DNA of 32,000 nt from Acaryochloris marina MBIC11017 (lineage in GTDB: Bacteria; Cyanobacteriota; Cyanobacteriia; Thermosynechococcales; Thermosynechococcaceae): the NCBI RefSeq assembly GCF_000018105.1, contig NC_009925.1:3330001-3362000 (forward strand). The letters are read 5' to 3'. Numbering within the stretch: the stretch's first letter is position 1; each line of letters begins with the position of its first letter. The notes under the pieces were generated by a model. It searched no databases and was not told the origin of the DNA. It was given only the letters and a program-made list of their open reading frames with translations. This document shows positions 1 through 31,729 of the stretch, piece by piece. The position numbers and the translations under genes are program-made.

Positions 1-3000
1 ACCCGCCTCCACAGAAGAGACTAATCTTCCTCCCCAAGCCCCTTCGGACGCTCCATCCCAGACTTTAGAAGAACCCGCACCTTCAGCCAGCCTCGACATC
101 CCCTACTTCGTCGATGCTGAATTTCGAGGCAGCACCCGTCGCCAATTTGGCGTGCTCAACCTTCGACTCCCCTTCTTCCAAGACGAGAAATCCTTCGCTT
201 TTGCCGACGTCCACTTTGAAGCAGGCAGCAACGAAACCTTCCTGGGGAACCTCGGTCTTGCCTATCGTCGCGTCCTCAATACCGCCGAAGAGAATCCCTG
301 GATCCTGGGCACCCATGCCTTCTACGACACCACCCGCAGTGAAAATGGCTTTCAATATCACCAAGGCAGCCTCGGCGCAGAACTCATTAGCAAGAAATTC
401 GAATTTCGAGTCAACGGCTACCTCCCCGGCAGTAACCCCAATACCGTTGGTCAACGCACCATCAATGATGTCCTCGGCATCCAGCCCAGAGCCAATGGCC
501 TAGGCACTAACATCGTCCGACAAGACATTACCCTCACCGCCCAAGAACGCGCCCTCGCAGGCTTTGATTTTGAAGTCGGTCATCGTCATCACTTTAGTGA
601 CAAAGTCAGCCTCGGTCTCTTTGGTGGCTATTTCTTCTTCGATAGCAGCGAAACCCTCAGCATCGATGGCCCCATGGCCCGTGCCCAACTCGAAGTCCAA
701 GACCCTTTAGGTATGAATGGGGGACTCCTCCAAGTCGGCAGCCGCTTCCGCTTCGATGAAACCCGTGGATCCGAACTCGAGGGCTTTGTCCGCCTCGGAA
801 TTCCCTTTGGTGGCCCCCAACGATCTGAACCTTTGAGCCTAACCCAGCGGTTAGCCCGCCGCCCCATTGAACGCCACTACGAAATCACCACCTTTGCTCA
901 GGACATCAACCGCCCCATCTCCCTTACCGAACTTCAAGCAGCCGTAGTTGGTCAAAGCACCCTCTCGCCCCTAGGCCCACAGATTTCCGCTATCACATCT
1001 CAAGTTGCTCTCAACCCTGCCACCGGACAACCCCTCAATATCTTCTTTGTGGATGGCGATGGCACAGCAGGTGATGGTACCCAAACCAATCCCTTGACAG
1101 TTGCCCAGGCTACTAGCTCCATTACCCAAGCGAATGACGTTTTATTTTTCTTAGATGATGCAGGCTCCATTGATACCCAGACAGGTCTAGGAAATTCCCT
1201 TACTCTCAAAACAGGACAACAGGCCCTTGGCATTGGCACCACCCCCAACTTTGTTTTCACCGTCCCCAATCTGGGTTCAGTCACTGTCTTCGATGCCGGA
1301 CAACCCCAACTGGTCAATGGGGCGAACAACAACGTCCTCACCCTTGCCAACAACAACACCATTGACGGTCTCGCCTTCAACGGGCAAAATACAGCTCCTC
1401 GGGGAATCGCCGCCGTTACAGGCGCCACCAACACCACCATCCGTAACAGCAACCTCAGCAATTTCACCGTCGCTGGCGTTCAGATCACCCCCTCCACCAA
1501 CACCATCATTGATAATGTGGTCTTCAACAACAACGCCACAGACGTTATCGTCAATGCCGCCAACACGACCTTAACCAACGTTGTAAGCAACAACGCCACA
1601 GGTCCCGCCATTCAGATCCTCAATGCCACAGGCACCACCACCCTCACCAATGTCAATATCTCCAATTCAGGTGGAGACGGTCTCCAGTTTGCCAACCCAT
1701 CAGGAACTATCACGGCCACTAATGTCGATATCACCAATGCTGACGATAACGGCCTAGAGATTACGAGCGGAGATGGCACCTTTATCTTTGATGCCACCAG
1801 CTCGATTACCGATACCACCAATGCGGCGCTCAATGTTGTAGGTGGCACCACCACGATTACTTATAACGGCACCATTACTCAAAACAATCCTGCGAGTGCG
1901 GTCAATATCACTGACAAGACAGGAAGCACTACGACCTTTAATGGTCTAGTCACGGCCAATACGAGTACGGCACCTGGAGTAAACCTGACAAATAATACAG
2001 GCAGTACCATTGCCTTTAATGGGGGCTTAGATATTGATACCACCACAGGGACTGGATTTAACGCCACCAATGGCGGTACCGTCAATGTCGCTGCCACAAG
2101 TGAAGATGAATCGGTCACCACAACCAGTGGTACTGCCCTGAATCTCAACAATATAGCGGCCAATATCACCTTTGATTCAGTGTCTTCGACTGGGGGAACG
2201 AATGGCATCAACCTGGATACAGTGATAGGTTCGGTGGGTGTATCTGGAACCACTACGATTGCCAACACCACTGGAGATGGGTTCTTAGCGACCAATAGTA
2301 CTGGAACCTATACCTTTGGTCCCGTAACCATCACCAATGCTGGGCTAGATGGCTTAGATCTCTCGGGAATTAATGATGCCACTACAGTGTTTAACTTGGG
2401 GGCATTGACGATTAATGGCTTTACGGGAACAGGAATTAATCTAGCGGGAGCGAATGTTGGTGTCACAGCTCCCACGGTAGCGATTACGAATACGGGCAAT
2501 GTGGGCACGGGGATTGACCTGACGAATACCACGGGCAATCGAGTGATTACCTTAGGTGATCCAACAAATACGGCTGGAGATACGCCCAGTTCGATTGCGG
2601 GGGTGAATGTTGGGGCGCAATTGAATAATGCCAATGCCAACTTTACCTTTGGCGATGGAGAGCAGACGACCGATACTCCCAGTACGATTGCAGCGACGAC
2701 TCCCATTGATGCTAGTGCGGTGGGGGCAAATGGTACCTATAACTTCCTGGATATTGCCTTTGCAGATAGCCCTGGCCTTCGGTTCTCAGATGTGTTCTAT
2801 GTGGATAATGTGCCCGGTGGTACAGGAACACGCACGAATCCAGCAGATGTGCCTTTAGGAGAGACGAATACTAATCCGAATGATGTGATTGTGTTGGTGG
2901 ATAATTCAGGCACAGATGTCATTGATGCTGCTGGGAGTAATGGGAATAATACGTTCCAATTACAGGATGGTCAGACGTTGGTGAGTTTCTTGAATGGTTC

Positions 3001-4555
3001 TGTGACGGTTGGGGCGGGGGGACCTGCCAATGTGCTGGCGAATATTACCATCACGGATCCCACGGGGAATGGAGCACCGACTTTAACAACGACTGGAGCT
3101 AATACCAATACGGTGACACTAGCCAATAACAACACCATTGATGGTGTGCAGATCGCAACGAATGCTACGAGGGTTGATGCAATTGATGGAACTAATATTG
3201 CTAGCATGACGATTCGGAATAGTGCGATCAGTAGCTCTAGGAGTGGAATTGAACTCACTAATCCTACAGGCACTGTGACCATAGAGAACAATCAAATTAC
3301 GGATGCCGGGTCTCGAGGTATCCATGTAAATGACTTTGCTGATACTGGGGAAGTTACGATTACTGTTGCCAATAATCAAGTCAATAATACGAATAATGAT
3401 GCGATTCATTTTGACACGATTAATAACGATGCTAATGTCACGATCACAGTTAATAACAATCGCATTGATGGTGGCAGTCGGAGAACTGATGATGGCATTG
3501 AGTTTGATGATATTGAAGGGAATGCAGTCGCCAATATTACGATTACCAATAATCAAATCACTGATGTTGCTTTCGAAGGGATCGAATTCGGTTTTTTTGA
3601 GAATAATGCTCAATCGACCATTTTGATTGACAACAACCAAATCACCAATGCAGGGGACATTGGTATTCAATTTGATGATTTAGAAAATAGAACTACTACG
3701 AATATCATCATCTCAAATAATATTCTGACTGATATTGATGAAGAGGGTATTGAGTTTGATTTGATTGAAAACTCGGCCGTGGCGAATATAACAATTGATA
3801 ATAATCAGATAACCAATACAAGCTTGGAAGGTATTGAGTTTGATGATATCGAAAATACTGCTACTGCCACTATCAGAATCTCAAATAATGTTCTCAATAC
3901 TATTGGGCAAGAAGGTATTGAATTTGGCTTTATTGAAAACTCATCCATGGCCAATATTACAATCGATAACAATCAAATAACTAATATAGCTACTGAGGGT
4001 ATTGAATTTGACGATATCCAAAATACTGCCACTGCTAATATTCAAATCGCCAATAATGTTTTTAACACTATTGGTCAAGAAGGGATTGAGTTTGACTTTA
4101 TTGAAAACTCAGCTGTGGCCAATATTACGATTGCAAATAATCAGATGAATAATTTAGGTGCAGATGGTATTGAGTTTGACGATATTGAAAATACTACCAC
4201 TGCCAATATCACGATTAGTGATAACACCATTAATGATGCTGGTGCTCATGGTGTTTTCTTTGACAGAATTGAACAGAATGCAAATGCAACAGTGACTCTG
4301 ACTGGCAATACGATTGCGAATCCAGGGGGAGATGGCATACAAGCAAGACATACGGCAAATACTAACTTCTGTTTGACCTTAAGTACCAACACTGTCAATA
4401 CTCCTGGTGGAGCTGGCTTTCATTTTATTAGTACTGGCGCAGGAGACTTTCAAATCGCAGATCGGGCCAATGTCCTGACTAATAACACAGGTGCCTTTAA
4501 TCCGGCTGATGTAGAGACCAATGCTAATTTTGCGAGTGTGGCAACTTGCCCATAG
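1..4555 (+). CDS. Large surface protein, 5' end outside window: inverse-autotransporter (intimin/invasin-type) outer-membrane beta-barrel followed by two right-handed parallel beta-helix passenger modules
   Basis: Frame 2 is open from nt 2 to the TAG at 4553-4555, so the listed GTG at 152 is internal and the true start lies upstream. nt ~95-900 encode LDIPYFVDAEFRG...FLGNLGLAYRRV...ILGTHAFYDTT...SLGAELISKKFEFRVNGYLP...ERALAGFDFEVGH...GGYFFFD. This fits my recollection of the inverse-autotransporter beta-domain consensus (GlGyR, G.NaFyD, lGaE, aNgYlP, GfDle). Two downstream modules each open with F(F/Y)VD...G.GT.TNP (nt ~1040 and ~2790). Both continue as T/N/G/I-rich 22-28-aa coils typical of parallel beta-helices. 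Confidence 0.8.
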   Translation, partial: PASTEETNLPPQAPSDAPSQTLEEPAPSASLDIPYFVDAEFRGSTRRQFGVLNLRLPFFQDEKSFAFADVHFEAGSNETFLGNLGLAYRRVLNTAEENPWILGTHAFYDTTRSENGFQYHQGSLGAELISKKFEFRVNGYLPGSNPNTVGQRTINDVLGIQPRANGLGTNIVRQDITLTAQERALAGFDFEVGHRHHFSDKVSLGLFGGYFFFDSSETLSIDGPMARAQLEVQDPLGMNGGLLQVGSRFRFDETRGSELEGFVRLGIPFGGPQRSEPLSLTQRLARRPIERHYEITTFAQDINRPISLTELQAAVVGQSTLSPLGPQISAITSQVALNPATGQPLNIFFVDGDGTAGDGTQTNPLTVAQATSSITQANDVLFFLDDAGSIDTQTGLGNSLTLKTGQQALGIGTTPNFVFTVPNLGSVTVFDAGQPQLVNGANNNVLTLANNNTIDGLAFNGQNTAPRGIAAVTGATNTTIRNSNLSNFTVAGVQITPSTNTIIDNVVFNNNATDVIVNAANTTLTNVVSNNATGPAIQILNATGTTTLTNVNISNSGGDGLQFANPSGTITATNVDITNADDNGLEITSGDGTFIFDATSSITDTTNAALNVVGGTTTITYNGTITQNNPASAVNITDKTGSTTTFNGLVTANTSTAPGVNLTNNTGSTIAFNGGLDIDTTTGTGFNATNGGTVNVAATSEDESVTTTSGTALNLNNIAANITFDSVSSTGGTNGINLDTVIGSVGVSGTTTIANTTGDGFLATNSTGTYTFGPVTITNAGLDGLDLSGINDATTVFNLGALTINGFTGTGINLAGANVGVTAPTVAITNTGNVGTGIDLTNTTGNRVITLGDPTNTAGDTPSSIAGVNVGAQLNNANANFTFGDGEQTTDTPSTIAATTPIDASAVGANGTYNFLDIAFADSPGLRFSDVFYVDNVPGGTGTRTNPADVPLGETNTNPNDVIVLVDNSGTDVIDAAGSNGNNTFQLQDGQTLVSFLNGSVTVGAGGPANVLANITITDPTGNGAPTLTTTGANTNTVTLANNNTIDGVQIATNATRVDAIDGTNIASMTIRNSAISSSRSGIELTNPTGTVTIENNQITDAGSRGIHVNDFADTGEVTITVANNQVNNTNNDAIHFDTINNDANVTITVNNNRIDGGSRRTDDGIEFDDIEGNAVANITITNNQITDVAFEGIEFGFFENNAQSTILIDNNQITNAGDIGIQFDDLENRTTTNIIISNNILTDIDEEGIEFDLIENSAVANITIDNNQITNTSLEGIEFDDIENTATATIRISNNVLNTIGQEGIEFGFIENSSMANITIDNNQITNIATEGIEFDDIQNTATANIQIANNVFNTIGQEGIEFDFIENSAVANITIANNQMNNLGADGIEFDDIENTTTANITISDNTINDAGAHGVFFDRIEQNANATVTLTGNTIANPGGDGIQARHTANTNFCLTLSTNTVNTPGGAGFHFISTGAGDFQIADRANVLTNNTGAFNPADVETNANFASVATCP
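3743..4246 (+). repeat. Three tandem copies of a 168-bp unit (two 84-bp / 28-aa sub-repeats each) inside the beta-helix gene; more diverged copies extend from ~3270 to ~4450
   Basis: Unit starts read directly at 3743 (gagggtattgagtttgatttgattgaaaactc), 3911 (gaaggtattgaatttggctttattgaaaactc) and 4079 (gaagggattgagtttgactttattgaaaactc), exactly 168 nt apart. Protein repeat: ANITI(D/A)NNQ(I/M)(T/N)N...(E/D)GIEFDDI(E/Q)NT(A/T)TA(T/N)I.I(S/A)NNV(L/F)NTIGQEGIEF(G/D)FIENS.. Confidence 0.9.
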
Positions 4556-4849
4556 ATCAAGCTGCTGACAATGGTTTTAATCATCATGAGATGATCGTTA
4601 ACATTGAGCTGGAATGATTTGTTGGTGTCTAATCTGCAATTTATGGGAGATGTATGGGAAATTTTTGCAGCCAGTCTAATTGCGTAAACCAGCTTCCTAG
4701 AGATACTTCCCTTAGATTATGAATTCCGATTAACCTCTTATGTTCTAGAGATCTCATAAATTCTGGGAGTAAGGATCAGATACCATCACTATCGCTTAAT
4801 CTGGTTGAGGTTCGATGAGTAATGAGAAGGGGCTGTATGGCACCTGTTA

Positions 4850-10548: not shown

Positions 10549-12501
10549 CTAAATCAATTCTGGGTCAGACATGATTTCTACGAGTGCAGGCCCCTGATAA
10601 GCCAGGGCCTGGGCCATAGCATCATCTAGTTCGTCCGGTTGGGTGACTCGGATTCCAAATCCACCGCAATTCTGAGCATATTGGGAAAAATCAGGATTGT
10701 GTAAGGAGGTTTGCCAGACATCCCATTCCCCCGCTCTCTGCTCCTTAGAAATTTTGCCCAACTGATCGTTATGGAGCAGGATATGGGTGATATTCATCTG
10801 GTACTTCACGGCGGTGGTAAATTCCGCCAAATATTGTCCAAACCCGCCATCACCTGATACAGACACAATGGGACGCTTATGGCCTGCGGCAGCCCAAGCG
10901 CCCATGGCAGCCGGGAAGGCAAACCCGATGGACCCGAGATATCCCGACATTAAAACGGACTGAGCCTGACACTCAAAATATCGACCAAAGGAATAGGTGT
11001 TGTTGCCTACATCCACCGCAATTACAGCATGAGCAGGCACCCATCGCGTCATGGCGGCAAAAATAGCGGCAGAGTTTAGCCCTTGTCCTCGGTCATCCAA
11101 TTCTCGCCGGGCTTTTTCTGCCCGCCAGATGGCCCAACGTTCGGCGATTTCAGATTGCACATCCTCCGTATCCACCTGCATCGAGAGGGCGGTCTTGAGC
11201 TGCTCCACCACAATACTAATTTCCCCCCAAACGGGAACTTCGATGGGATGAAATTTACCTAGGGCCAGCGGATCAAAATCTACCTGAATAATCGGTTTGC
11301 CTGGATAGATGCCCGTGTGATTAGAAAAAGAAGCCCCCAATACCAACAGCACATCCGCCTCATTCATAAACCAGCTGGCAATGGGAGTACCACTGCGCCC
11401 CAATACTCCACATCCCAGAGGATGGTCATCGGCAATCTGCCCTTTACCTTTAAAGGTTGTTAGGACGGGCGCGCCCAAAAGTTCAGCTAGTTCTATCACC
11501 GCAGGCATATGAAACCGAGCGCCATGACCCACAATGATGACGGGGCGGCGTGACTGTTTCAGTTTGCCAATGGCCTGCTGTAAAGACTCCGGGGGTGGCG
11601 CGATTTGCAGCGGGGTGATGCGTCCAGTGGGCGTTGCCGCAGGGACATCAACAGCAGGCTGGACTTGAATCTCATCGGGAAAAATCAGGTGAGAGACATT
11701 GCGTTCTAAGAGAGCATGCTTGATCGCCAGAGTCATCAATTCGGCATGCTTGCTGTGACTAAGAACCGTTTGACTCCAAGCTGCCACCCCACTAAAGGCG
11801 GCAGATAAATCACATTCTTGAAAGTTACCAGTCCCCAAGACTTGAGAATTGACCTGTCCGGTTAAAGCCAAGATGGGGGCACAATCGACTTTGGCGTCCC
11901 ACATTCCGGTCAGGAGGTTGGTTGCACCGGGGCCAGCAATGGTCAAACAAGCAGCGGGGGTACCCGTGAGTTTGGCATAGGCGGAGGCAGCAAAGGCTGC
12001 GGCTCCTTCATGGCGAATGCCAATATAGGTGAGCTTGCCCTGTTCTTCCTGACGGCGTAGGGTATCAGCCAGTCCTAAATTCGAATGGCCTACCATACCA
12101 AATACATGGGTAACGCCCCAATTCACCATGGTTTCAGCCATCACATCGCTAACGGTGCGGATGTGCGGTTTCTCCACGGGTAAACCCACATAGACACCGT
12201 CATCTCGCACCTCAACCGGAAAGGTTTCGAGGGCATCATCGACATCCAAGCCACCGGGCGGTTGCCCCGTCAGTGGGCAATAATCCCACCCATGCCAAGG
12301 ACAGCGCAACAGGCCATTTTCAATAGAGCCTTCGCCGAGGGGGCCGCCTTGGTGAGGACAGCGATTATCAAGGGCACCATACTGGCCTTGGTGATGGGTT
12401 AAGGCCAGACTTTTATGACCTGCAACGACGGTTTTGACCCGACCTTCGGGTAGTTCGTCTAGGTCTAAGACCCGAAACCACTGAGGGGTTATCTCAGGCA
12501 T
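10549..12501 (-). CDS. Fusion protein: N-terminal Rieske [2Fe-2S] domain + thiamine-diphosphate-dependent enzyme (pyruvate oxidase / acetolactate synthase superfamily)
   Basis: Rieske ligand boxes CPHQGGPL and CPWHGWDY lie in the first ~100 aa. The ThDP N-domain follows (GVTHVFGMVGHSNLGLAD...IRHEGAAAFAASAYAKLTG...IAGPGATNLLTG). The ThDP-binding motif is GDGGFGQY...ITHILLHND near the C-terminus. The frame is continuous across the junction. AAGGAG SD precedes the ATG. Confidence 0.9.
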   Translation of the reverse strand: MPEITPQWFRVLDLDELPEGRVKTVVAGHKSLALTHHQGQYGALDNRCPHQGGPLGEGSIENGLLRCPWHGWDYCPLTGQPPGGLDVDDALETFPVEVRDDGVYVGLPVEKPHIRTVSDVMAETMVNWGVTHVFGMVGHSNLGLADTLRRQEEQGKLTYIGIRHEGAAAFAASAYAKLTGTPAACLTIAGPGATNLLTGMWDAKVDCAPILALTGQVNSQVLGTGNFQECDLSAAFSGVAAWSQTVLSHSKHAELMTLAIKHALLERNVSHLIFPDEIQVQPAVDVPAATPTGRITPLQIAPPPESLQQAIGKLKQSRRPVIIVGHGARFHMPAVIELAELLGAPVLTTFKGKGQIADDHPLGCGVLGRSGTPIASWFMNEADVLLVLGASFSNHTGIYPGKPIIQVDFDPLALGKFHPIEVPVWGEISIVVEQLKTALSMQVDTEDVQSEIAERWAIWRAEKARRELDDRGQGLNSAAIFAAMTRWVPAHAVIAVDVGNNTYSFGRYFECQAQSVLMSGYLGSIGFAFPAAMGAWAAAGHKRPIVSVSGDGGFGQYLAEFTTAVKYQMNITHILLHNDQLGKISKEQRAGEWDVWQTSLHNPDFSQYAQNCGGFGIRVTQPDELDDAMAQALAYQGPALVEIMSDPELI

Positions 12502-18753: not shown

Positions 18754-20004
18754 TTAGCCTGAAGAATCTGGGGCGACTGTTGTTGAAGAATCTGGAGTGA
18801 TGGTTGCAAGAATGACTATATCTTGAAAATCATAGGAATCATCACCGGGGCTACCACTGCCTAATTCAAATAGAAAAATAACTTGGTTGTCGGCAATGGT
18901 CACCCTTTGGTTGGTATCAATATAGCCTTGAGTAATTGTAGAAATAGGTAACTGATTACCGTAAGGTGTATAGTCCGGAATTGAATCCCCATTCTGTAGT
19001 GTTAAAACACGATTAGAATTATTGTCCGATGATACAGAAATGTTTGGAGAACATGATCCACCAGTGGTTGATGCACCATCAGTGGCTAATTCAGTTCCGG
19101 GCGCTACTGAGATATTCGTTTGCACACCTAAAGGAGCCACTGTTGAGAGCGCAGATTGGCTGATTTGCTGGCCATGAGTGAGTTCATAAGCTGCTGAAGT
19201 ATTGATGGGGGGGCCGCCTACACCACAAGTTATTTCACTTCCTAAGACCCTAATATCCATCTTAGATTTTTCTAAGATCGTTACTGTGGAACCACCTGTT
19301 ACGGTAACAATCCGCGAATTACGGGTTGCAACTGTTGTGTTAGCGGTATAGATATCAGAACCCTGCAATGGAGTATCGTACACTCCAGCATGAAACAGTT
19401 TAGCCATTTTGCCTGTGGAATCTACACAAGCTCCAAACCCCAAGTTGCCATTCGCAGTCCAGTTTGTGTCTGGGCAGCTAGGAGAAGTACTATTATCCTG
19501 AATGGAATCAATCAGTGGTTCATGACTCCAGTTAGCTAGGTCGGATGGATCTGCATAGGTGCCATCACCATTGTGTTTTGGTCCCCATCTATACACTACT
19601 TGGGGACCTAACCATAAGTTGTTAGGGGATGGAGCGGTGTAATAAACGACTGACTGCTGGACATCAGTAAAACCAGGCATTTTCAGCATAAGAACTGATT
19701 CCGCTCCACTGGGTAGAGCGGTATTAAAACCCGGAGGAGCTGGTTCGTTGTCTGCATCAAGAAGAATTCTGTCAGCGTGACGAACTTCGGTAGCCATGAA
19801 ATCTAAAGATCGATTGAGTTCTACTCTTCTCTCATTTTGAGCATTGGCAACTTGGCTAGAGCGGAAGATAGAGACTAATCCAAATCCACCTATGGCTACA
19901 ACGCCTAGGCTAATTACAGCCGCAACTAATAACTCAGGGAGTGTAAATCCTTGTGAGGTGCGTTTTTGATAAATGGCCTGTTTTATAGGGAATTTAGTTT
20001 TCAC
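18754..20004 (-). CDS. PilW-like minor pilin / pseudopilin with large C-terminal domain
   Basis: Prepilin motif QG|FTLPELLVAAVISLGVVAIGGFGLV (Gly-1, Phe+1, Glu+5, hydrophobic helix). It is followed by ERRVELNRSLDFMATEVRHA, which resembles the PilW N-domain. GTG start, with no in-frame ATG upstream of the cleavage motif. Confidence 0.75.
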   Translation of the reverse strand: MKTKFPIKQAIYQKRTSQGFTLPELLVAAVISLGVVAIGGFGLVSIFRSSQVANAQNERRVELNRSLDFMATEVRHADRILLDADNEPAPPGFNTALPSGAESVLMLKMPGFTDVQQSVVYYTAPSPNNLWLGPQVVYRWGPKHNGDGTYADPSDLANWSHEPLIDSIQDNSTSPSCPDTNWTANGNLGFGACVDSTGKMAKLFHAGVYDTPLQGSDIYTANTTVATRNSRIVTVTGGSTVTILEKSKMDIRVLGSEITCGVGGPPINTSAAYELTHGQQISQSALSTVAPLGVQTNISVAPGTELATDGASTTGGSCSPNISVSSDNNSNRVLTLQNGDSIPDYTPYGNQLPISTITQGYIDTNQRVTIADNQVIFLFELGSGSPGDDSYDFQDIVILATITPDSSTTVAPDSSG

Positions 20005-20253
20005 TTATATCAATTGCGAATAAAATCATGAATAGAACATTGTTTGTCAAAGTTCACGGTACTTGAATGGCTTTGAGAAAGCTGTTATTCAAATCACGAA
20101 ATTGACATAGGCATTATTTTTATGCCGTTGGAAAAATAATTTTACCATTGTTATAGAAAGTTTGGCTTGCCCTGAAAGCACCTGACAAATCAACTGTGTG
20201 TTGATGCTAAGTACTCCTAAAAGAAGCTGATGATGGGTTCTTATGTAGTTCAC

Positions 20254-20832
20254 TTATGATGAATGGCAATTACTTGCGTCTGCCTGGGCGGTAGTGGGTG
20301 GATGATTTCCTCTAAATTCACCCATTCTAATAATTCCAATTCCTGCAGTAATCGCTAGACAACGCATCCCTTGAGATTGATCGGGATGGAAAAACACTAA
20401 GACATTACCGGAAGAGGTCGATCCTTTCGGGGAAAACTGTATATCGTCGTTGGTTGCAGCGATCAAAGTGACAGCAGAAGGACTTGTGCCTCCACCCAGT
20501 TGTGTTAAATCCCGCGTTCCTGTTGGTAAGCAGCTTTGAGGATTGGCTATGATAGAAGAACTGCTAATGCTAAGGCTACATTGTTGACTGGTGCGAATGG
20601 CGGTTGCTTGGGCTTCTTTTAGGGCTCCCTCTACTTGTTTGGAAACATCTTCTATTCTTTTGTTGTTGATCCAGCCTAAAAAGCTAGGAGCTGCTAGGGC
20701 AGCAAATATGCCTGAAATCACTACGATCGCTAGGACTTCAGGCAATGAAAACCCAGAGCTTTTGTGCTGATATTGAGGCAATATCATGAAATTTTCTTGC
20801 GAGTTATCATTATCGAAATCAACTAAGGGCAT
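20254..20832 (-). CDS. GspH/FimT-like minor pilin / pseudopilin
   Basis: SG|FSLPEVLAIVVISGIFAALAAPSF prepilin motif. GspH-like features are ...VEGALKEAQATAIRTSQ... and the C-terminal RCLAITAGIGIIRMG. An alternative ATG at 20787 gives a 12-aa leader and removes the 10-nt overlap with the upstream gene. Confidence 0.75.
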   Translation of the reverse strand: MPLVDFDNDNSQENFMILPQYQHKSSGFSLPEVLAIVVISGIFAALAAPSFLGWINNKRIEDVSKQVEGALKEAQATAIRTSQQCSLSISSSSIIANPQSCLPTGTRDLTQLGGGTSPSAVTLIAATNDDIQFSPKGSTSSGNVLVFFHPDQSQGMRCLAITAGIGIIRMGEFRGNHPPTTAQADASNCHSS

Positions 20833-21347
20833 TCAAGCGATTTATCAGGAATGACCTTAGTTTGAACGACAGCAATAGGGATATTATCAGCAGATACAAC
20901 TTGATATTCCAGGCTCAGTACATTGAATGGAGCATCAGAGGGGAGATCTGGGGTACGTATAAGGGTATATGGCCGATTACCAATAGCGCTCAGTTTGTCA
21001 GTATCTACTGGTGCATTTGCATTAATTTCATCTTGCAAGAGAGCCGCATATCCTGATGTGTTATCAATAGCCTGACAGGCTGATAGGTTAACGTCTTCAC
21101 CTAAACCGAATCGCTTGGATTCAAATCGAACCCTTTCTATATCTTCTTGGATCCAGGTTGTGGCTTCACTGAGTTCTTGCCCTTTCACTTTAAAGACTGT
21201 GGCTGTCACTAACGCTTGCATGGCAGTACTAATAAAGCCAACAATTACTAAGAGACCAACTAAGACTTCCACTAAGGTAAATCCAACATGTGGATGTTCA
21301 TTTGACTTGAATTTTGTAATCATTGGACTTATAAATTCTGAGAACAT
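20823..21347 (-). CDS. PilV-like minor pilin / pseudopilin
   Basis: VG|FTLVEVLVGLLVIVGFISTAMQAL prepilin motif, then ...EATTWIQEDIERVRF, which resembles PilV. Small size (174 aa). Confidence 0.7.
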   Translation of the reverse strand: MFSEFISPMITKFKSNEHPHVGFTLVEVLVGLLVIVGFISTAMQALVTATVFKVKGQELSEATTWIQEDIERVRFESKRFGLGEDVNLSACQAIDNTSGYAALLQDEINANAPVDTDKLSAIGNRPYTLIRTPDLPSDAPFNVLSLEYQVVSADNIPIAVVQTKVIPDKSLECP

Positions 21348-21440
21348 GTCATCAGCCCTGTTTTTCTGTTAAAAATTTTTAATCATTTTAGTTGTCATAA
21401 AAGTTGATGATAAAAATGAACGATTTGGATCGATTTATCA

Positions 21441-22781
21441 CTAATTTACAGAACGCTCGTTGGTGCCCCATGCTTGAATTGGATTGAGTTGTGGTGGATA
21501 CAGTATGTTTATGGGTGCATTACTCCATTTACGCGAGCTTGTTGGGTTGATTTCTTGTACATTATCTAGAACTGGTGTGTGCACGTTCCCATTGTTGGAC
21601 CAGCTATTCACCCAAAAAACGCTCGTATTAAAAATTTCACGGCCACTAGCATTTGTGCCACATATATTTGGGGTAGTCGGCAAACCACCCCCAGGATTGC
21701 TTTCAAAGTTAGAAGTATTATTGACATTATGGGATGGTGCGTGAATAAAGACATTACATAAAACGGTGCCTTTATTTAAGAGGATATTGCCGCTACCTTG
21801 GCCATATATTTTTACTTGAAATTCTTGGCAATTTTCTGGAGAACCTCCGCAACGAATTACAGTATTTTGTAGATCAATATTCCCGTCTACCCAAATTTCA
21901 ACATTCTGATTGGCATTAACATCGATGAAATTGGTTGCACTATTATTGGGAGTTTCTAGGCCGATGGGATTAAAATATTCAGATATACTGCTATCCAACT
22001 GGATGGTGTTATTTGTTGGATCTCTTAAAGGTAAAGAAGGAGCGGGGAGAGTAGGAAGAGACGGTATGCCAGGAATTAATATACTCAGGTTCTTTGTAAA
22101 GTGGTTATTTTGAGGTAGTGCAGTGATAGAGCTACTACAAGATCCCACAATGTCTGTGTTTATAGACCCAACAGTAGCGTCATTGGCAACCCACAGACCT
22201 GCAAGGGGGAACTCTTCTACTGAAAAATCTACTTCTAATTCAGAAATTGATTCACTGGGTTGGTCTTCGTTAACCCGACCTTGAACTCGAAGTGTGGAGT
22301 TTTGATCATCATAGGTTAACAATCTATATTGGCCTTGACTAGGTTCACTAGGATTAATATTTTGCCATTCTCTGTTCGCTAAGCTCACGATCTCAGCTGT
22401 GCGATTAATCCCACATTCTGCCAAGATATTAGGAATATTGTTAGGTAACGCCCAGCTCTCAGTAGAGTTGCCGCTATCTGAACAAGTACCATCAGCATTT
22501 CTAGTGGGGGGTGTGTTCAGATCTGTTGTACAGGCTGGATAGTTAGCGATTGCACGATGCTGATTCATTAAAGCTCGGATTTCATTTACCCCGGTTTCTG
22601 CGGCGTTGAGGCTTTTGGCGGTATCTTTTTGTGCGATCGCACTTACCTGACTATCTTGCGATCGCAATAGCATCGTCAGCCCTACCAAAAGGATAATCAG
22701 CCCCATGCCAATGGCGACAGGCAGCGCAAAGCCTGCTTGGCTTTTGCGACATTTCAGAGAGTATAAAATCCAGTCTTTCAT
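21441..22781 (-). CDS. PilX_N-type pilus-associated protein (possibly HpsA-like)
   Basis: QAGFALPVAIGMGLIILLVGLTMLL lacks Glu+5. SLNAAETGVNEIRAL follows, which is the PilX N-terminal pattern. The track start at 22799 is TTG; the ATG at 22781 (MKDWILYSLKCRKSQAG...) is preferred. It is the first gene of the minus-strand pilin module. Confidence 0.65.
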   Translation of the reverse strand: MKDWILYSLKCRKSQAGFALPVAIGMGLIILLVGLTMLLRSQDSQVSAIAQKDTAKSLNAAETGVNEIRALMNQHRAIANYPACTTDLNTPPTRNADGTCSDSGNSTESWALPNNIPNILAECGINRTAEIVSLANREWQNINPSEPSQGQYRLLTYDDQNSTLRVQGRVNEDQPSESISELEVDFSVEEFPLAGLWVANDATVGSINTDIVGSCSSSITALPQNNHFTKNLSILIPGIPSLPTLPAPSLPLRDPTNNTIQLDSSISEYFNPIGLETPNNSATNFIDVNANQNVEIWVDGNIDLQNTVIRCGGSPENCQEFQVKIYGQGSGNILLNKGTVLCNVFIHAPSHNVNNTSNFESNPGGGLPTTPNICGTNASGREIFNTSVFWVNSWSNNGNVHTPVLDNVQEINPTSSRKWSNAPINILYPPQLNPIQAWGTNERSVN

Positions 22782-23036
22782 GGCTGAGAGTCTATGCAAA
22801 CCTAGAGGTAAGGCATTCTATCCAATACAGATTTTGTAGAATGTTATACAAACTATACCGAATATCCCAATAAAAATTAAGTATTTTTCCCCACGACAAT
22901 CAACGATTTTAGGTATAGCCATTCTAGCAGTTCGCTTCTATTCTGTTGGGCAATAATTTCATAAAACTAGACCTTTACTGTCCCTCGTTTCAGAATCATC
23001 AAGCATTTTGTCTGTGAATAAATAAAAACGCTGCTG

Positions 23037-23052
23037 TGTGATCTAGATCACC
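23037..23052. promoter_or_regulatory. Candidate CRP/SyCRP1-type binding site TGTGATCTAGATCACC in the divergent pilin control region
   Basis: Read directly: TGTGA-N6-TCACC, 9 of 10 half-site positions of the TGTGA-N6-TCACA consensus. The core GTGATCTAGATCAC (23038-23051) is a perfect 14-bp palindrome. It lies ~256 nt from ATG 22781 and ~650-710 nt from the plus-strand module start. Confidence 0.5.
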
Positions 23053-23762
23053 CAAGTTGGTGATTTCGATTCTTAGACTAGACTTTCAAGAAAAATAATT
23101 TGTACAGCTCTATATGCTTAGATCATAGAGGTTGTGCTCGGTTCTTTACCTAACTGATCCGGCAGACTTTTGTACTTCCGCATTGAGTTAGATTCATTCT
23201 TGTCATCTCAAACGGACTAATCATTTAAAAAAGCTTTGTAATGAAATAGAGCTCAAGATTTTTATTGTCACTTGATTTCACTTGCCAATAAAAAATTAGT
23301 CTTAATTTTATCTGGTTTTTTATCTTGCCTATATTTCCTCTAAGATCATTATTTTGCCGAGGAATTATATTTAAAAATTGTATATTTCAGTGTCTGAAAT
23401 GTATGACTTATAAGATTTCCGAGATATCACTGAGGTGACTAAGGAAGATTTTATATACAGTTATTGTCAGGGATTGCAAACTCGTAAGGCAATATCTACC
23501 GGACTTAGTTCTGGCATTGGTGCGTGGGAGCTGCTGAGGCCAGCATAGGAGTTAATCAAGAGCTACTGATTAGTGAGATCTTGATGTGTTTTTGCATGGC
23601 GATTTTCTTGACATACAAAACATTATTCATCGTCCCTTATAGACCGTGATCAGTTTTGTTCACGTTGAGTCCATCCTAGGAATTAAGAATAGAGTTTATC
23701 TCATGGGTCAGTACAAGTTGTCTTTGGTACTTTACAACCGCTTAATTAAATATCAGCAGCAA

Positions 23763-24281
23763 ATGGATTCTGATGAAGGATTCTCGCTTATTGAAGTCAT
23801 AGTTGTGATTGCACTTACGGCATTTTTAGCTGCTTTTGCCGTGCCAGCTATCACTTTTGGTAACAATCCGCTTAGAGATTCATCCGACCGCATTGCCGCG
23901 AGTATGAAGTGGGCAAGAGCGCAGGCAATGGCTTCGACGTCTGCAGTTCGGATTCGCCCGATCTCAAATACAGAATTTGTGATGGAGCGAGCGAATAGAT
24001 GCACCGAGGCGAATAATGCCAACTGGACCATTATTAGTGACCAAGTCGAAAGAGATGGGCAATTGGTCTATGAAGATTTAAGTCTAGATACACCAGCACA
24101 ACTGACTACCGTTACTGAGGATGGAGTGGCTGCGACCCCTACAACCTGGGATATCTGTTTTAACACTCGCGGAATAGCGGATAAAACCCTGGTTTTAACA
24201 ATGGAAGATACGGGGAATAGTGACCAACGAACCATGACTATTTTTCGAGGTGGCACGGTGGATCTTACTGCTATCAATTAA
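23763..24281 (+). CDS. GspH/FimT-like minor pilin / pseudopilin
   Basis: MDSDEG|FSLIEVIVVIALTAFLAAFAVPAI prepilin motif. GspH-like features are RIAASMKWARAQAMAS and the C-terminal RTMTIFRGGTVDL. ATG 23763 gives a typical 6-aa leader; alternative starts are ATG 23703 and GTG 23646 (the track start). Confidence 0.75.
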   Translation: MDSDEGFSLIEVIVVIALTAFLAAFAVPAITFGNNPLRDSSDRIAASMKWARAQAMASTSAVRIRPISNTEFVMERANRCTEANNANWTIISDQVERDGQLVYEDLSLDTPAQLTTVTEDGVAATPTTWDICFNTRGIADKTLVLTMEDTGNSDQRTMTIFRGGTVDLTAIN

Positions 24282-24327
24282 CGGTAACTCTTTAGACATG
24301 CGAAATGTATCGTAGATCGAGAAATTT

Positions 24328-24768
24328 ATGAAAGCTCATAGACCTCACTCCCTAAATCCATTTTGGTTCAGAATGTTGCGGACATCACGTACGGACAACA
24401 AAGGATTAACTCTGGTAGAAGCACTGGTTTCGTTGCTAATCTTTTTTGTCGCTGCAGCATCGATTGTGCCTGTTTTTTTGAACTACACAATTTCTACGAT
24501 TAATAACGAAAGACGAACTGGAGGGATTGCTGTCGCCCAGCAAGTGCTAGATGGCTTGCGTCAGGTGGATCCAACCACTCTAGATGCTACTGGCACATTC
24601 ACTCTGACGGATGTTTCTTACTTGGGTAAGACTTACACCCCTATCGTTACTTACTGCCAGAATCCTGCATTCTGCACTAACCCAGACTCACGGCACATCA
24701 CACTTCAGGTATTCCACAATGGCAACGAAATTTACCAAGCTGAAACTGTTTTCACCAACCTCCAATAA
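24328..24768 (+). CDS. PilV-like minor pilin / pseudopilin
   Basis: KG|LTLVEALVSLLIFFVAAASIVP has Leu at +1 and Glu at +5. Followed by GIAVAQQVLDGLRQ. Small size (146 aa). An alternative ATG at 24373 gives an 11-aa leader. Confidence 0.7.
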   Translation: MKAHRPHSLNPFWFRMLRTSRTDNKGLTLVEALVSLLIFFVAAASIVPVFLNYTISTINNERRTGGIAVAQQVLDGLRQVDPTTLDATGTFTLTDVSYLGKTYTPIVTYCQNPAFCTNPDSRHITLQVFHNGNEIYQAETVFTNLQ

Positions 24769-25771
24769 GGGTTTTACGCTGGTTGAACTATTAGTCACCA
24801 CTTTAATTGCTACCGTTGTTCTGGTTTCTTCTCTTGGGCTGATTAGCGACCAACGTAGGCGCTTTGTCTCCGATCAGGTGCGTGCAGAGTCTAATCAAAC
24901 CTTACGTGTGGGTTTGGATCTCATCGGTGCTGATATTAAAAACACAGGAGACTTTTTAGAGACAGACATTAATTTGCCTGTGGTGACTGTGATTGATGGT
25001 GCTTCAGGAGCGCCAGATGAAATTATTCTGCAGCGCAAACTGATCTCTGACACATTGACTGTTTGTGAAGATGTGAACGCTGGCGCGACAACAACCATCA
25101 CCGTTGCAGTGAGACCAGGTGCGGGTGACTGCCCCATCTATTCAGATGGTAATAATGATGATTTGAACGACCCACTCACCCTGGCTAGAAGAGAGCGCTG
25201 TGAACAAGACGATGTTGCTGGATGTGCGCGGAATGCGGCACTAGCCGCGAATACTTGCGATGACGAATGTGTAACAGCTTACATCTATGACCCAGTAAAC
25301 CAAGAGGGTGAATTTTTTAGTTATATGTTTGAGGAGCCTGATGCGTCGCCTAATCCAACTTTAAATCGGATTTATTTAGGAGACAGCGCTACTTTTGCTA
25401 ACACCTATCAATTGGCCAATAGACCCATTATCTATCTCCTTGAGCAGCGACATTATCGTCTGAATAACAATGTGTTACAGCTGAGTGTTAATCGAGGTAA
25501 TTTCGTATCAATCGTTAACCAGGTTGCAGATTTCCAGGTGCAAGCCCAATTGACGACTAATCCCAATCCCCAAGACTCCTTTAACTCTAACCCTTCAGTC
25601 AGTGGCGATCCAGGAGTGTATCAGCAGACGACTCCGTGGCAAACCTTGCAATTCTTACAGGTAGATTTGCAGTCTGTCGATCCATCTGAGTCTGACTTAA
25701 CTGAATTAGATGCCGATCAGCGTCAGATTGCTTCCAGATTCTATCCCCGTAACGCTCGGTCCCAAGATTAA
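24719..25771 (+). CDS. PilW-like minor pilin / pseudopilin
   Basis: MATKFTKLKLFSPTSNKG|FTLVELLVTTLIATVVLVSSLG prepilin motif, then QTLRVGLDLIGADIKNTG, which resembles PilW. The track ORF begins at 24611, but that extension lies inside the upstream gene. ATG 24719 is the only in-frame ATG just upstream of the cleavage motif. Confidence 0.75.
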   Translation: MATKFTKLKLFSPTSNKGFTLVELLVTTLIATVVLVSSLGLISDQRRRFVSDQVRAESNQTLRVGLDLIGADIKNTGDFLETDINLPVVTVIDGASGAPDEIILQRKLISDTLTVCEDVNAGATTTITVAVRPGAGDCPIYSDGNNDDLNDPLTLARRERCEQDDVAGCARNAALAANTCDDECVTAYIYDPVNQEGEFFSYMFEEPDASPNPTLNRIYLGDSATFANTYQLANRPIIYLLEQRHYRLNNNVLQLSVNRGNFVSIVNQVADFQVQAQLTTNPNPQDSFNSNPSVSGDPGVYQQTTPWQTLQFLQVDLQSVDPSESDLTELDADQRQIASRFYPRNARSQD

Positions 25772-25839
25772 GTATTTGTTGCCCCTTTGCCTTCCTATTC
25801 TAGATTCTTTGCCTTACTTTTTAGAGACTTATTACAGTT

Positions 25840-28344
25840 ATGAAGTACAATTCCAGCCGCTTTCAACATTCCTTATTTCAACTGTTGGTTCGTCTTCAGC
25901 AGACTCGGAAAAATGAGGGAGGGTATAGCTTAGTCGTCACTGTGGCGATGCTGTTGATTTTATCTACCCTGCTCATTAGTGCTGCAGTAGTAAGCAAAGT
26001 GGATACAGCGAGCACCAATGCTTCTGCTAGAAGTAGTAATGGCTTTTATGCTGCAGAAGCTGGGCTGAATTTACGTGCTGCACAGATTCAAACCCAGTTC
26101 CGAGGATTTCAGCGTCCTACCGGAACTTCTCCCACAGACAGCGATAATGATGGTGAGATTTGGGATGATTGTGCCGCTGGCAGCAGTGTTGGCACTGGCG
26201 ATTTTGACTGCCGCGATTTTTCATTCCAAGGTCAAGATGTATTTACTTTCATTGAAGAGGTTGGGCAAGATGACAACCTGGATGGTGTCCCTGATGATTT
26301 AGATGGTGATGGTGTGACTGATCCCATCTCCATTGTTGTGCCACCAGGAGAACGATTTGCAGGGCTCAGTGCTCAAGAATATCGGTATAACTTATGGTCG
26401 GTTGCTCAGCGTGACGATCTGCCCTCTGCAGTATTAGGCATGACTTTCAAGAGTCGAGTTATTCCTTTATTCCAGTTTGCAGTGTTCTATGAAAATGATG
26501 CGGATTTCACCATCCCACCGGATATGACTATTAATGGACGGGTTCATAGTAATGCTGATCTATATCTGAATTCGGCTAGTAATTCCTTTCGATTAACAAT
26601 CAATGGTGATGTCACTACTGCAGGAAAGCTTTATAGAGGAGATAAAGCGAATGTAGGGGGGCAGCAATGTGCGGGTAATGTAACGATTCGCAGACAGGAT
26701 GGTAATCCCCAAGATTTGCTTTGTGGTAGTGGCATTACTGAGTATTTAGATAGCACTACCACTCCTTCTAATATCAGTACGTGGGGGACTGCAATTGATA
26801 CTCAAGTGCCAGTTTTAGAGGTACCACAACCTGAAGTTTATGACCCGACTCCAGGAAGTGCCTATTGGGATGCATCGGATCTTAGGATTGTATTAGAGGT
26901 CGATGCTAATGGTAATCCGACTGATAGAAACGGCAATGGTTATGTGATTGAAATTCGGAACCAAGATGGTACTTCTAATGACACTTTATCTGAACGTCTT
27001 CTAAATGATTGTCCGGTTGCTAGCACAACGTTAAGAAATGAAAATGGTTCGGGTAATCCCAGTTACGAAGTCAATGATACCCGAGTAAAGACTGATAATA
27101 GTACATCTCTCAATGACTTTACGACGGGTGACTTTATCACAATTGGTAATGATATTGATAGTAATGTAGTAACTTCTATCTCTAATGGTGGTAATAAGCG
27201 GTTGTTCATCAGAAGGCGCTTAGGACATGGGTATCAGTCTAATCCTGTTGCAACATCAGGTGAATCTGTTCGTAAAGCAGTTGTTTCTACTTCTGATACC
27301 TTCTATAACTATCGCGAAAAGCATAACGGTACTGATGGAAATGCGGGTAATTATATCCGTATGCTTAACGTAGATGTGCAGGCACTGCTTGACTGTGTCC
27401 ATGACCAGCAACTGATGGGGACTACTCAGCTTGATGATCGTACTGAAGGGGGATTAGTCTGGTTCTTCACGGTTGATGATACAGATCCACTAGTTGATGA
27501 TGATGGTGATTCTTCGACTGCTAATGATTGGATTGAAAAAACGCTCAATTTAACGGGCAGTACTTCTCCGGTGGGCAGTACTTATGGTGTGCGTCTCTAT
27601 AATGGTGCCTCGCTAAATACCACTGCAGCAGTTTCTGGTGCACCTACTATTGAAGGCTTAACCATCATTTCCGATGAAGCTATTTATGTGCGAGGAGATT
27701 ATAACTTGCATACTAATGCTGACCCGGCGCTCGATACGTGGCGACCGGCAGCCTTTATGGCTGACACCATCAATGTTTTATCCAATAGCGCACAATTGGA
27801 TGATTCTGATCAGCGGGCGTATGGCAGCGATAATATTCCTAATGCTTCCTCTAGCGGAAAAATCAATTATTTTGATAATCGTCGTCGAGCTTCTACAACG
27901 ACGATTAATGCAGCCTTTCTATCTGGATCTGAAATTACTGGTACTGAAAATGGGCCTACCTATCAAGCGGGTGGCACCGATTTTGTTGCCAATAGCGATA
28001 GCGGCGGTGTCAACAACTTTCCACGTTTCCACGAAAATTGGTCAGGCATTAGTCTGAACTATCTAGGTTCGCTGGTTAGCCTCAATGAACCACGTCGTGT
28101 AAATTCCAGCTTCTGCGGAAGTTTTAACTCTGGTACGTGTAATATTTATACGCCACCCGTCAGAAATTGGGATTTTGAACAGCGGTTTAATGATGCAGGT
28201 GATTTACCTCCCCTCACACCCCGAACCGTGTATTTGCGCCAAGAATTGTTCCAGCGTGATTTTGATCGAAACTCCAATCGCTCCACTCAGTTGTTTGCGT
28301 CTGCGCCTATTATTCCTTCCATTCAGCCTAAGTTTTCCCTATAG
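25840..28344 (+). CDS. Large (834 aa) PilX_N-type pilus-associated protein with Ca-binding-like Asp-rich motifs; candidate tip adhesin / HpsA- or slr2018-like
   Basis: EGGYSLVVTVAMLLILSTLLISAAVV (no Glu+5) followed by GFYAAEAGLNLRAAQI is the PilX N-terminal pattern. DSDNDGEIWDDC sits at aa 100-111 and DDNLDGVPDDLDGDGVTD at aa 144-161. It is the last gene of the plus-strand module and is followed by a strong hairpin. Confidence 0.7.
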   Translation: MKYNSSRFQHSLFQLLVRLQQTRKNEGGYSLVVTVAMLLILSTLLISAAVVSKVDTASTNASARSSNGFYAAEAGLNLRAAQIQTQFRGFQRPTGTSPTDSDNDGEIWDDCAAGSSVGTGDFDCRDFSFQGQDVFTFIEEVGQDDNLDGVPDDLDGDGVTDPISIVVPPGERFAGLSAQEYRYNLWSVAQRDDLPSAVLGMTFKSRVIPLFQFAVFYENDADFTIPPDMTINGRVHSNADLYLNSASNSFRLTINGDVTTAGKLYRGDKANVGGQQCAGNVTIRRQDGNPQDLLCGSGITEYLDSTTTPSNISTWGTAIDTQVPVLEVPQPEVYDPTPGSAYWDASDLRIVLEVDANGNPTDRNGNGYVIEIRNQDGTSNDTLSERLLNDCPVASTTLRNENGSGNPSYEVNDTRVKTDNSTSLNDFTTGDFITIGNDIDSNVVTSISNGGNKRLFIRRRLGHGYQSNPVATSGESVRKAVVSTSDTFYNYREKHNGTDGNAGNYIRMLNVDVQALLDCVHDQQLMGTTQLDDRTEGGLVWFFTVDDTDPLVDDDGDSSTANDWIEKTLNLTGSTSPVGSTYGVRLYNGASLNTTAAVSGAPTIEGLTIISDEAIYVRGDYNLHTNADPALDTWRPAAFMADTINVLSNSAQLDDSDQRAYGSDNIPNASSSGKINYFDNRRRASTTTINAAFLSGSEITGTENGPTYQAGGTDFVANSDSGGVNNFPRFHENWSGISLNYLGSLVSLNEPRRVNSSFCGSFNSGTCNIYTPPVRNWDFEQRFNDAGDLPPLTPRTVYLRQELFQRDFDRNSNRSTQLFASAPIIPSIQPKFSL

Positions 28345-31100: not shown

Positions 31101-31729
31101 TGTTGGGTGTTGTGATGTACTCCGAGCTAATTATGGACAAAAACTAGCACAAACATAACGAATTGCAAGAACTTATTGTCCAAACCGATTCCAACAACGG
31201 GTAGAAGCTAGGGTAAACCTCCTCCTAATAGGTCGTTGCAGATGTCTGAGTGATAGACAGATATGAACTTTTCATTTTACGGGAATAGTTTTAGAGGGCG
31301 GGATGGATCTAGCTCAAGGTTGACTCAGAGTGACCGCATGATCACTCTTATCTGAAATTTGGCACTGTTCATCGGTTGATAAAGTAGGGAATACTGGGGG
31401 GTTATGGAGGTAATATCTAATAAAAATCTCATTAATTTTTAATGTATTTGTGAATTGAAACTCAATGCAAAAGTTTTCTCGTTAAAGGTTAAGTATCTGC
31501 GAACATCCATGTACTGAGATGAATATCGAAATTAGCTCTAAGTATTGATTGAGCTCAGATGAGCGGATGTTATACCATTTACGAAAATACCAATTTATTC
31601 GTTAAAATAAAAAGTGTTCCCTGTGCTGATAATGTGTGTCAATCGATGGTAAAAACTGATCTAATCCTGAGAATATTAAGGATCTCAGCAGCCAGTTTCA
31701 ACCGTTCTAATTCAGGTCAGCAAAGCAAT

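Follow-up and report, generated by a model that had tools for sequence, protein, structure and literature searches.

Two divergent four-gene minor-pilin sets in Acaryochloris marina as candidate alternative priming complexes for type IV pili

Two minor-pilin gene sets lie back to back in a 32,000-nucleotide stretch of the Acaryochloris marina MBIC11017 genome (NC_009925.1, 3,330,001 to 3,362,000; hereafter 'the window'), and their closest described counterparts come from other cyanobacteria. A preprint of February 2026 by Schuergers et al. (bioRxiv 10.64898/2026.02.12.705559) covers 90 cyanobacterial genomes, groups their pilins in six families and distinguishes two core minor-pilin sets. In EPS-type sets the PilX is expanded and homologous to HpsA, as in PilA9-12 of Synechocystis; Com-type sets comprise PilA5-8 together with PilX1-3, or PilA3/PilW/RntA/RntB in Synechococcus elongatus. 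According to the same preprint, either set alone primes PilA1 pili in Synechocystis, although the length and dynamics of these pili differ, and in Thermosynechococcus transformation is lost when the Com set is deleted and motility is lost when the EPS set is deleted. Its authors describe cyanobacterial PilX as a ComZ-like or ice-binding-like beta-solenoid, propose that the large PilX domain substitutes for PilY1, and attribute up to 44 pilins, in multiple sets, to A. marina. An earlier preprint had placed Slr2018, a protein of 773 amino acids (aa), at the end of pilA9-11, and reported that homologues of PilX1-3 adjoin pilA5 homologues in other cyanobacteria.

The MBIC11017 locus consists of eight intact open reading frames (ORFs), AM1_3317 to AM1_3324, which form two back-to-back four-gene minor-pilin sets across about 9.6 kb (18754-28344; all positions are those of the window). 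Each set has a FimT/GspH member (H), a PilV-like member (V), a PilW-like member (W) and a PilX-like member (X), in the order X-V-H-W on the minus arm (A1-A4, AM1_3320-3317) and H-V-W-X on the plus arm (B1-B4, AM1_3321-3324). It is probable, in our view, that these are two divergent operons, each encoding one complete core minor-pilin set, EPS-type on the plus arm and Com-type on the minus arm, and that both serve a type IV pilus machine encoded elsewhere in the genome. The genes are as follows, with the cleavage point of each prepilin motif written as a slash.

21441-22781, minus strand: A1 (AM1_3320), PilX-type, 446 aa from the ATG at 22781; the longest ORF extends to a TTG at 22799 and gives 452 aa
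20823-21347, minus strand: A2 (AM1_3319), PilV-like, 174 aa, HVG/FTLVE; annotated as hypothetical
20254-20832, minus strand: A3 (AM1_3318), FimT/GspH, 192 aa, or 177 aa from the RefSeq start at 20787, SSG/FSLPE
18754-20004, minus strand: A4 (AM1_3317, ABW28311), PilW/GspJ-like, 416 aa, SQG/FTLPE, with a large C-terminal extension
23703-24281, plus strand: B1 (AM1_3321), FimT/GspH, 192 aa, DEG/FSLIE; a longer ORF from 23646 gives 211 aa
24328-24768, plus strand: B2 (presumably AM1_3322), PilV-like, 146 aa, NKG/LTLVE
24719-25771, plus strand: B3 (AM1_3323), PilW-like, 350 aa from the likely start, the ATG at 24719, NKG/FTLVE; the ORF from 24611 gives 386 aa
25840-28344, plus strand: B4 (AM1_3324), large PilX-type, 834 aa, putatively of the HpsA/PilA12 (EPS) lineage

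The initial annotation, made from the sequence alone, had recognised the same eight ORFs and quoted six prepilin motifs, and we recovered both. When all six frames of the 32-kb window were searched for G[FLMIV][ST]LxE with a hydrophobic run behind it, exactly six canonical motifs came up, all of them inside 18754-28344. The H, V and W members have a class III signal peptide with Gly-1 and Glu+5, a hydrophobic helix and matches to N_methyl. The two PilX-type proteins have cleavage sites without Glu+5, AG/FALPV in A1 (452-aa frame) and GG/YSLVV in B4, and share an AAE(T/A)G(V/L)N block; both features had also been noticed at the outset. Exact look-ups identified seven of the eight genes with MBIC11017 entries in GenBank or RefSeq. 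A1 (ABW28314/WP_012163719) and B4 are named as PilX N-terminal domain-containing proteins, A3 and B1 (ABW28315) as 'GspH/FimT family pseudopilin', A4 as 'PulJ/GspJ family protein' and B3 (WP_041659887) as 'PilW family protein'. The exception is B2, whose exact 146-aa product occurred in Logan assemblies alone, with no NCBI accession in the look-up; a protein in the same cluster carries the name 'type IV pilus modification PilV family protein'. Start codons kept among relatives refine three of the models, those of B1 (23703, 192 aa), B3 (24719, 350 aa) and A1 (22781, 446 aa). The original GenBank models of AM1_3319 (149 aa, against 174 aa in RefSeq) and AM1_3323 (287 aa, against 350 aa) start past the signal peptide, which hides the pilin nature of both products.

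Profile hidden Markov models had been expected to detect pilin domains beyond the N-terminal motif. This held for GspH (PF12019), which exceeds its gathering score of 21 in one H gene per arm (24.9 bits in A3 and 31.7 in B1); matches to PilV and PilW stayed below threshold. PilX_N was matched at E <= 0.01, below its gathering score, by one member of the minus-arm PilX family and by a Thermus homologue of B4. The claim that pilus machinery is missing from the neighbourhood proved correct: among ten upstream genes scanned against Pfam, and among the other neighbours in the window as judged by their products, there is no major pilin, PilB, PilT, PilC, PilMNOPQ or prepilin peptidase. The flanking genes are housekeeping or unrelated genes (pyk, Rrf2, CobD, MltA, an acyltransferase, a VWA protein and a phosphoesterase), and their base composition is different; guanine plus cytosine (G+C) makes up 0.425 of 18754-28344, compared with 0.523 of the left flank and 0.512 of the right. 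The AT-richness of the block had been noted from spot counts, which are exact (23/60 at 21841 and 34/60 at 17941). Rfam at gathering thresholds gave nothing across the whole window.

Resemblance between the arms is confined to the N-termini of the pilins. When family profiles are compared with one another, the minus- and plus-arm PilX families are similar over their N-terminal 55-57 residues or so and the PilV families, likewise, over about 55. Because the similarity is restricted in this way, a recent duplication of one arm from the other is ruled out, and the view that these are two complete and deeply divergent sets is borne out. B4 matches the NCBIfam HpsA model NF038301 (E 4e-16, 57.8 bits, far under the equivalog cutoff of 400), and so do all 15 of its aligned relatives (best E 1.9e-22), whereas none of the 22 relatives of A1 does so; seven of these 22 contain Pfam DUF7305. 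The profile matches suggest that B4 is related to HpsA, yet is not HpsA proper. An early likening of the minus arm to hpsABCD is consequently reversed, while the comparison of the plus arm with pilA9-slr2018 fits in order and in size pattern. Since the HpsA link sits with the plus-arm PilX, the plus arm would be both 'pilA9-like' and of the hps lineage, and the minus arm would represent the other, competence-type lineage. The HpsA match, gene order and PilX size all favour placing the plus arm among the EPS-type sets, in the lineage of pilA9-pilA12/HpsA; the minus arm is read as Com-type from its non-HpsA PilX, the adjacency of X and V, and the presence of DUF7305 among its relatives.

Each arm has both likenesses to and differences from its proposed counterpart. 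The plus arm resembles pilA9-pilA10-pilA11-pilA12(slr2018) of Synechocystis sp. PCC 6803 in the order FimT-PilV-PilW-large PilX, in the size of PilX (773 aa there and 834 aa here) and in the absence of Glu+5 from PilX, and it shares with the Synechocystis pilA9-12/Nostoc HpsA lineage an HpsA-family relationship and a CRP-type site upstream. Unlike those systems, it has no slr2019-like ABC gene after the cassette and no hps glycosyltransferases (HpsA proper has hpsB-G beside it, glycosyltransferases included, and no glycosyltransferase gene was found in the window), its PilX falls far under the HpsA equivalog threshold, and it stands head to head with another set. The minus arm resembles Com-type sets (Synechocystis PilA5-8 plus PilX1-3, S. 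elongatus PilA3/PilW/RntA/RntB and Thermosynechococcus vulcanus tll2333-35) in its smaller PilX of 446 aa, which lacks an HpsA signal and adjoins a PilV-like gene (A2), as is also seen in Stanieria and Crinalium. By description, it also fits the published Com-type synteny, and its PilX may fit the published beta-solenoid character, but it is one compact four-gene operon, whereas the Com genes are split in Synechocystis and S. elongatus. An AlphaFold2 model of A1 (predicted local distance difference test, pLDDT, 77.7) has a beta-rich C-terminal domain, and its top Foldseek match in the PDB is ComZ (6QVI; E 8e-3, probability 0.60, template modelling score 0.22), the tip pilin of the minor-pilin cassette pilA1-pilA2-pilA3-comZ of Thermus thermophilus, followed by ice-binding beta-solenoid proteins; all of these matches are weak. 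No additional Pfam domain was found in the A4 family by Pfam scan.

The divergent arrangement recurs in 10 or more Acaryochloris assemblies. Among the loci from other genomes that we compared with the MBIC11017 reference (numbered L001 to L088), the pair occupies the same site, between pyk-rrf2 and cobD-mltA, in nine complete Acaryochloris loci (L002, L008, L017 and L081-L086), which come from three Acaryochloris species genomes and six further assemblies; two partial loci, L004 and L005, are consistent with this. All eight reading frames are intact in the window and in the nine complete loci, and the signal peptides are conserved. Conservation in the minus arm is lowest in the 249-nt gap between A3 and A4 (20005-20253), at 39-67% identity; the gap may contain an internal promoter or may be a recombination junction.

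The two cassettes are also found apart. A scan of one genome per GTDB species produced 286 confirmed relatives of B4 among the stretches matched, and in cyanobacteria these are always the last gene of an H-V-W-X cassette. The plus-arm cassette occurs in Acaryochloridaceae, Thermosynechococcaceae, Aliterella, Lyngbya, Petrachloros, Altericista and Aphanothece, and stands alone in many other cyanobacteria, for example after radA in the metagenome-assembled genome (MAG) of an Acaryochloris; a tandem pair of it is present in each of two MAGs, one of a Synechococcus (L024) and one of an unclassified bacterium (L029). Both cassettes are again divergent in a Thermosynechococcaceae MAG, and in Lyngbya confervoides the minus-arm cassette lies downstream of the plus arm in convergent orientation. 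The X-V-H-W order recurs in Stanieria PCC 7437 (L087, 6001-11018) and Crinalium PCC 9333 (L088, 6001-10465), where the putative Com-type cassette, with a second FimT-like gene, is directly downstream of rpmB (ribosomal protein L28). Outside cyanobacteria, H-V-W-X cassettes were found in Thermus and Meiothermus (L047, L051, L062, L072), Bdellovibrionota, Binatia and other phyla (within L028-L080). The Thermus cassette is homologous and has a PilX of about 600 aa (tblastn E 1e-59 to 1e-75 against B4); the V gene of one such cassette matches Pfam Tt1218-like, a PDB search gave no match of the B4 homologue to ComZ by sequence, and in the locus that was inspected the cassette is not followed by a major pilin gene.

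The arms are separated by 920 bp (22782-23702), which we aligned across 11 Acaryochloris loci and in which four elements can be proposed.

22921-22929, minus strand: candidate extended -10 element of the minus arm, TGCTAGAAT, a consensus match; predicted transcription start site (TSS) about 22914
23037-23052, no strand assigned: CRP-type palindrome TGTGATCTAGATCACC, with its core GTGATCTAGATCAC at 23038-23051
23074-23079, plus strand: candidate -10 box TAGACT (TAnAnT), 21 nt after the CRP-type 16-mer; predicted TSS about 23086
23380-23702, plus strand: conserved non-coding leader of 320 nt, directly upstream of B1

The CRP-type site has one mismatch to TGTGA-N6-TCACA in the window and none in L002, and its core is invariant in 10 of the 11 loci, L005 having a single change in the spacer. 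As background, 13 sites with at most one mismatch occur in 460 kb of cyanobacterial loci, and five of these 13 come from five of the 11 aligned loci. Neither the plus-arm cassettes outside the divergent loci nor the minus-arm cassettes that stand separately in L009 and L018 were found to have such a site upstream, so the site appears specific to the Acaryochloris divergent locus. Its centre is 29.5 nt upstream of the first base of TAGACT, which is the class II (-41.5) geometry for a plus-strand promoter. In the box itself, TA[G/C/A]ACT, the T, A, A, C and T are conserved, and not one insertion or deletion separates site from box in the 11 loci. This spacing fits the rule that CRP-activated promoters of cyanobacteria have TAN3T about 22 bp downstream of the site (Xu and Su, PMC2633013), and the site is nearly identical to the CRP site of Synechocystis slr0442, TGTGATCCAGATCACA, given in the same study. 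Its authors counted A. marina among the genomes that encode crp and in 2009 predicted CRP control of 'type IV pilus synthesis', AM1_3323-3324, in MBIC11017. The geometry suggests that the site serves the plus-strand promoter. The candidate minus-arm element TGCTAGAAT is largely conserved in the 11 loci, with differences at one or more positions each in the window, L002, L008 and L005, and the predicted 5' untranslated region of about 133 nt is conserved.

The leader is better conserved than much of what it precedes. Mean column identity is 81% in five loci, identity to the window is 72-86% at the nucleotide level, and in four of six strains compared the leader exceeds B1-B3 (54-70%); in L085 and L086, B1-B3 reach 83-90%. 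Invariant runs within it are ACTGAGGTG, GATTTTATATA and GTCCATCCTA. Stand-alone plus-arm cassettes (L001, L003) also keep its last 60 nt or so in front of them. A structured RNA was considered and rejected, given positive (unfavourable) covariation terms in RNAalifold with 5 and 11 sequences and a candidate stem that is broken in several strains; a small gene was likewise rejected, its frames being broken by indels. A search of the intergenic region against Rfam at E <= 10 returned chance-level matches alone. In Synechocystis, pilA5-6 and pilA9-12 respond in opposite ways to the CRP-family factors SyCRP1 and SyCRP2 acting with the cyclic di-GMP (c-di-GMP) receptor CdgR, which makes reciprocal control of the two arms at this locus a reasonable inference by analogy.

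From the observed gene content, lineage split, synteny and conservation of regulatory motifs we infer how the locus would operate. A prepilin peptidase would cleave the products, and the four proteins of one set would come together on the platform in the inner membrane as a tip or priming complex, with the bulky PilX domain capping the filament and the major pilin polymerising underneath. The set in use would then decide the kind of pilus made; the plus-arm lineage primes long adhesive motility pili in model strains, the minus-arm lineage short dynamic pili for DNA uptake, and a similar assignment may apply here. Cyclic AMP signalling through a CRP-type protein would activate the putative EPS-type arm by binding at -41.5 of the predicted plus-strand promoter, and the putative Com-type arm would be read from a separate extended -10 promoter, back to back with the first and some 170 bp from it in the 920-bp region. 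The idea of two alternative priming complexes on one machine, raised in the initial annotation, agrees with the experiments in Synechocystis and Thermosynechococcus (10.64898/2026.02.12.705559). The further suggestion in that annotation, that one shared control region might work as a switch, is plausible; however, the best-placed element of the region, the CRP-type site, suits a plus-strand promoter.

Several points weigh against this interpretation. The Com and EPS labels are based on the HpsA profile match (58 bits against a cutoff of 400), gene order and size, and the preprint itself treats 'Com' and 'EPS' as lineages, not strict functions (10.64898/2026.02.12.705559). Of the two labels, Com is the less secure; distant DUF7305 members, used as a profile query, retrieved no protein from Synechocystis or S. 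elongatus, and a literature search on locus tags, as a way of anchoring the minus arm to named competence proteins, turned up the preprint alone. Matches of the PilV and PilW classes to existing models are mostly N-terminal as well as sub-threshold (TIGR02523 PilV, at 19 bits in A2; PilV and ComGE in B2; HpsC and GspJ at the N-terminus of A4; HpsC at that of B3), and these class calls rest on position, size and source annotation. Sequence searches of the PDB with both PilX proteins, the B4 family profile, the Thermus homologue and the B2 and B3 family profiles gave nothing or the N-terminal helix alone; B2 and B3 matched the pilin helix and nothing beyond. The resemblance of the A1 model to ComZ is weak, and the AlphaFold2 model of B4 (pLDDT 61) is too poor for interpretation; its Foldseek matches to a V-ATPase and phage proteins were dismissed as meaningless. 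From the CRP-type site it is about 650 nt to the first codon of the plus arm and about 260 nt to that of the minus arm, so that geometry alone indicates the arm served, and both promoters (TSS about 23086 on the plus strand and 22914 on the minus) are predictions from the DNA. To our knowledge, MBIC11017 has not been documented as motile or naturally transformable.

The variation among strains raises a different possibility. Flanking DNA is 80-94% identical between the window and L002, L008, L017 and L081-L086, and the proteins of L081 match those of the window at 100% identity for Pyk and 98% for MltA, while identity is 73% for B4, 67% for B1, 45% for A1 and 42% for A4. Similarity is also a mosaic from gene to gene; in L085 and L086 it is about 90% for B1-B3, 71% for B4 and 45-50% for A1, and L017, the flanks of which are among the most divergent, has the A2 and A3 most similar to those of the window. 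Some strains have insertions between B4 and cobD. These patterns suggest gene-scale recombination or diversifying selection at the pilin genes, and the mosaicism and insertions, combined with the lower G+C, point to a pilin island that is prone to recombination around a conserved regulatory core. The minor pilin operon fimU-pilVWXY1E of Pseudomonas aeruginosa is also a pilin island exchanged between strains, and its four core minor pilins divide the work in the same way; unlike it, the Acaryochloris locus is without PilY1 and PilE, has another gene order and has two sets rather than one. We tentatively suggest, as an idea that could well prove wrong, that this is a locus for exchanging tip complexes, in which recombination among Acaryochloris strains replaces single minor-pilin genes in both sets and these diversify, while the fixed bidirectional control region (the CRP-type operator, two promoters and the 320-nt leader) is kept, such that one second-messenger input would balance competence- and motility-type pili whatever alleles are present.

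Taken further, the same variability could mean that the arms are redundant priming sets in a recombination-prone island, paired by the accretion of exchangeable surface-protein cassettes (under phage or grazer pressure, for instance) and without any switch. The protein identities of 42-73% where Pyk is 100%, the mosaic similarity, the low G+C and the variable insertions beside cobD would all be expected of such an island, and it is relevant that either set alone supports piliation in Synechocystis and that the plus-arm cassette is found elsewhere alone or in tandem. We consider this unlikely, however, because the two lineages split anciently and co-occur across cyanobacteria with distinct phenotypes, because every Acaryochloris locus examined keeps both the arrangement and the intergenic elements, and because hypervariability is in any case compatible with functional specialisation.

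The HpsA relationship invites another explanation, namely that one or both arms encode pseudopilins of polysaccharide export, either like a type II secretion system or of the Hps type, as proposed for Nostoc hpsA-D; this would concern the plus arm especially. B4 and its family do match the HpsA model, several of the proteins have weak scores with the GspH, GspJ and GspG models, and RefSeq uses names such as 'PulJ/GspJ family' and 'type II secretion system protein'. Yet the HpsA match is far under the equivalog cutoff, there are neither hpsE-G-type glycosyltransferases nor type II secretion genes nearby, the homologous pilA9-12 of Synechocystis primes genuine PilA1 pili, and the Thermus copy of the cassette is in a pilin context, all of which makes a role in export quite improbable. 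That the arms are decaying or silent remnants, functionless in this non-motile marine strain, might be argued from the absence of pilus machinery in the window and the truncated GenBank models, but is so improbable as to be set aside, given eight intact frames here and in nine complete related loci, and the conservation of signal peptides and regulatory DNA.

With two specialised sets serving one machine as the preferred explanation, the locus reveals no new kind of system; the two-set scheme was generalised in the 2026 preprint, with A. marina named, and CRP control of AM1_3323-3324 had been predicted in 2009. What is new is a head-to-head pair kept at one site, the architecture of a CRP-type promoter and leader, the gene-by-gene mosaicism, and the spread of the plus-arm cassette beyond cyanobacteria. 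The locus would be a compact natural example of how two specialised pili can be obtained from one machine by swapping a four-protein priming complex, and, with both sets head to head and one intergenic region between them, experiments on reciprocal regulation and set-swapping are simple to design. The mosaicism among strains also suggests diversifying selection on pilus tips, which bears on phage susceptibility, the specificity of DNA uptake and attachment to surfaces.

Elsewhere in the window, the N-terminus of a GGDEF-EAL protein (c-di-GMP turnover) of about 963 aa begins at 31646 and runs off the window end at 32000, as judged from a 91%-identical homologue in L081 (15859-18753); in several strains this gene comes about 3.3 kb after the plus arm, on its downstream side. 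At the other end (152-4555) a 1467-aa protein combines an inverse-autotransporter beta-domain with a right-handed beta-helix region, and the 3' part of its gene together with the next spacer (3000-4800) is AT-rich, with a G+C of 0.36-0.40. Finally, a 650-aa protein encoded on the minus strand (10549-12501) has an N-terminal Rieske [2Fe-2S] domain fused to a thiamine-pyrophosphate enzyme that is complete in its N, M and C domains, an unexpected combination.

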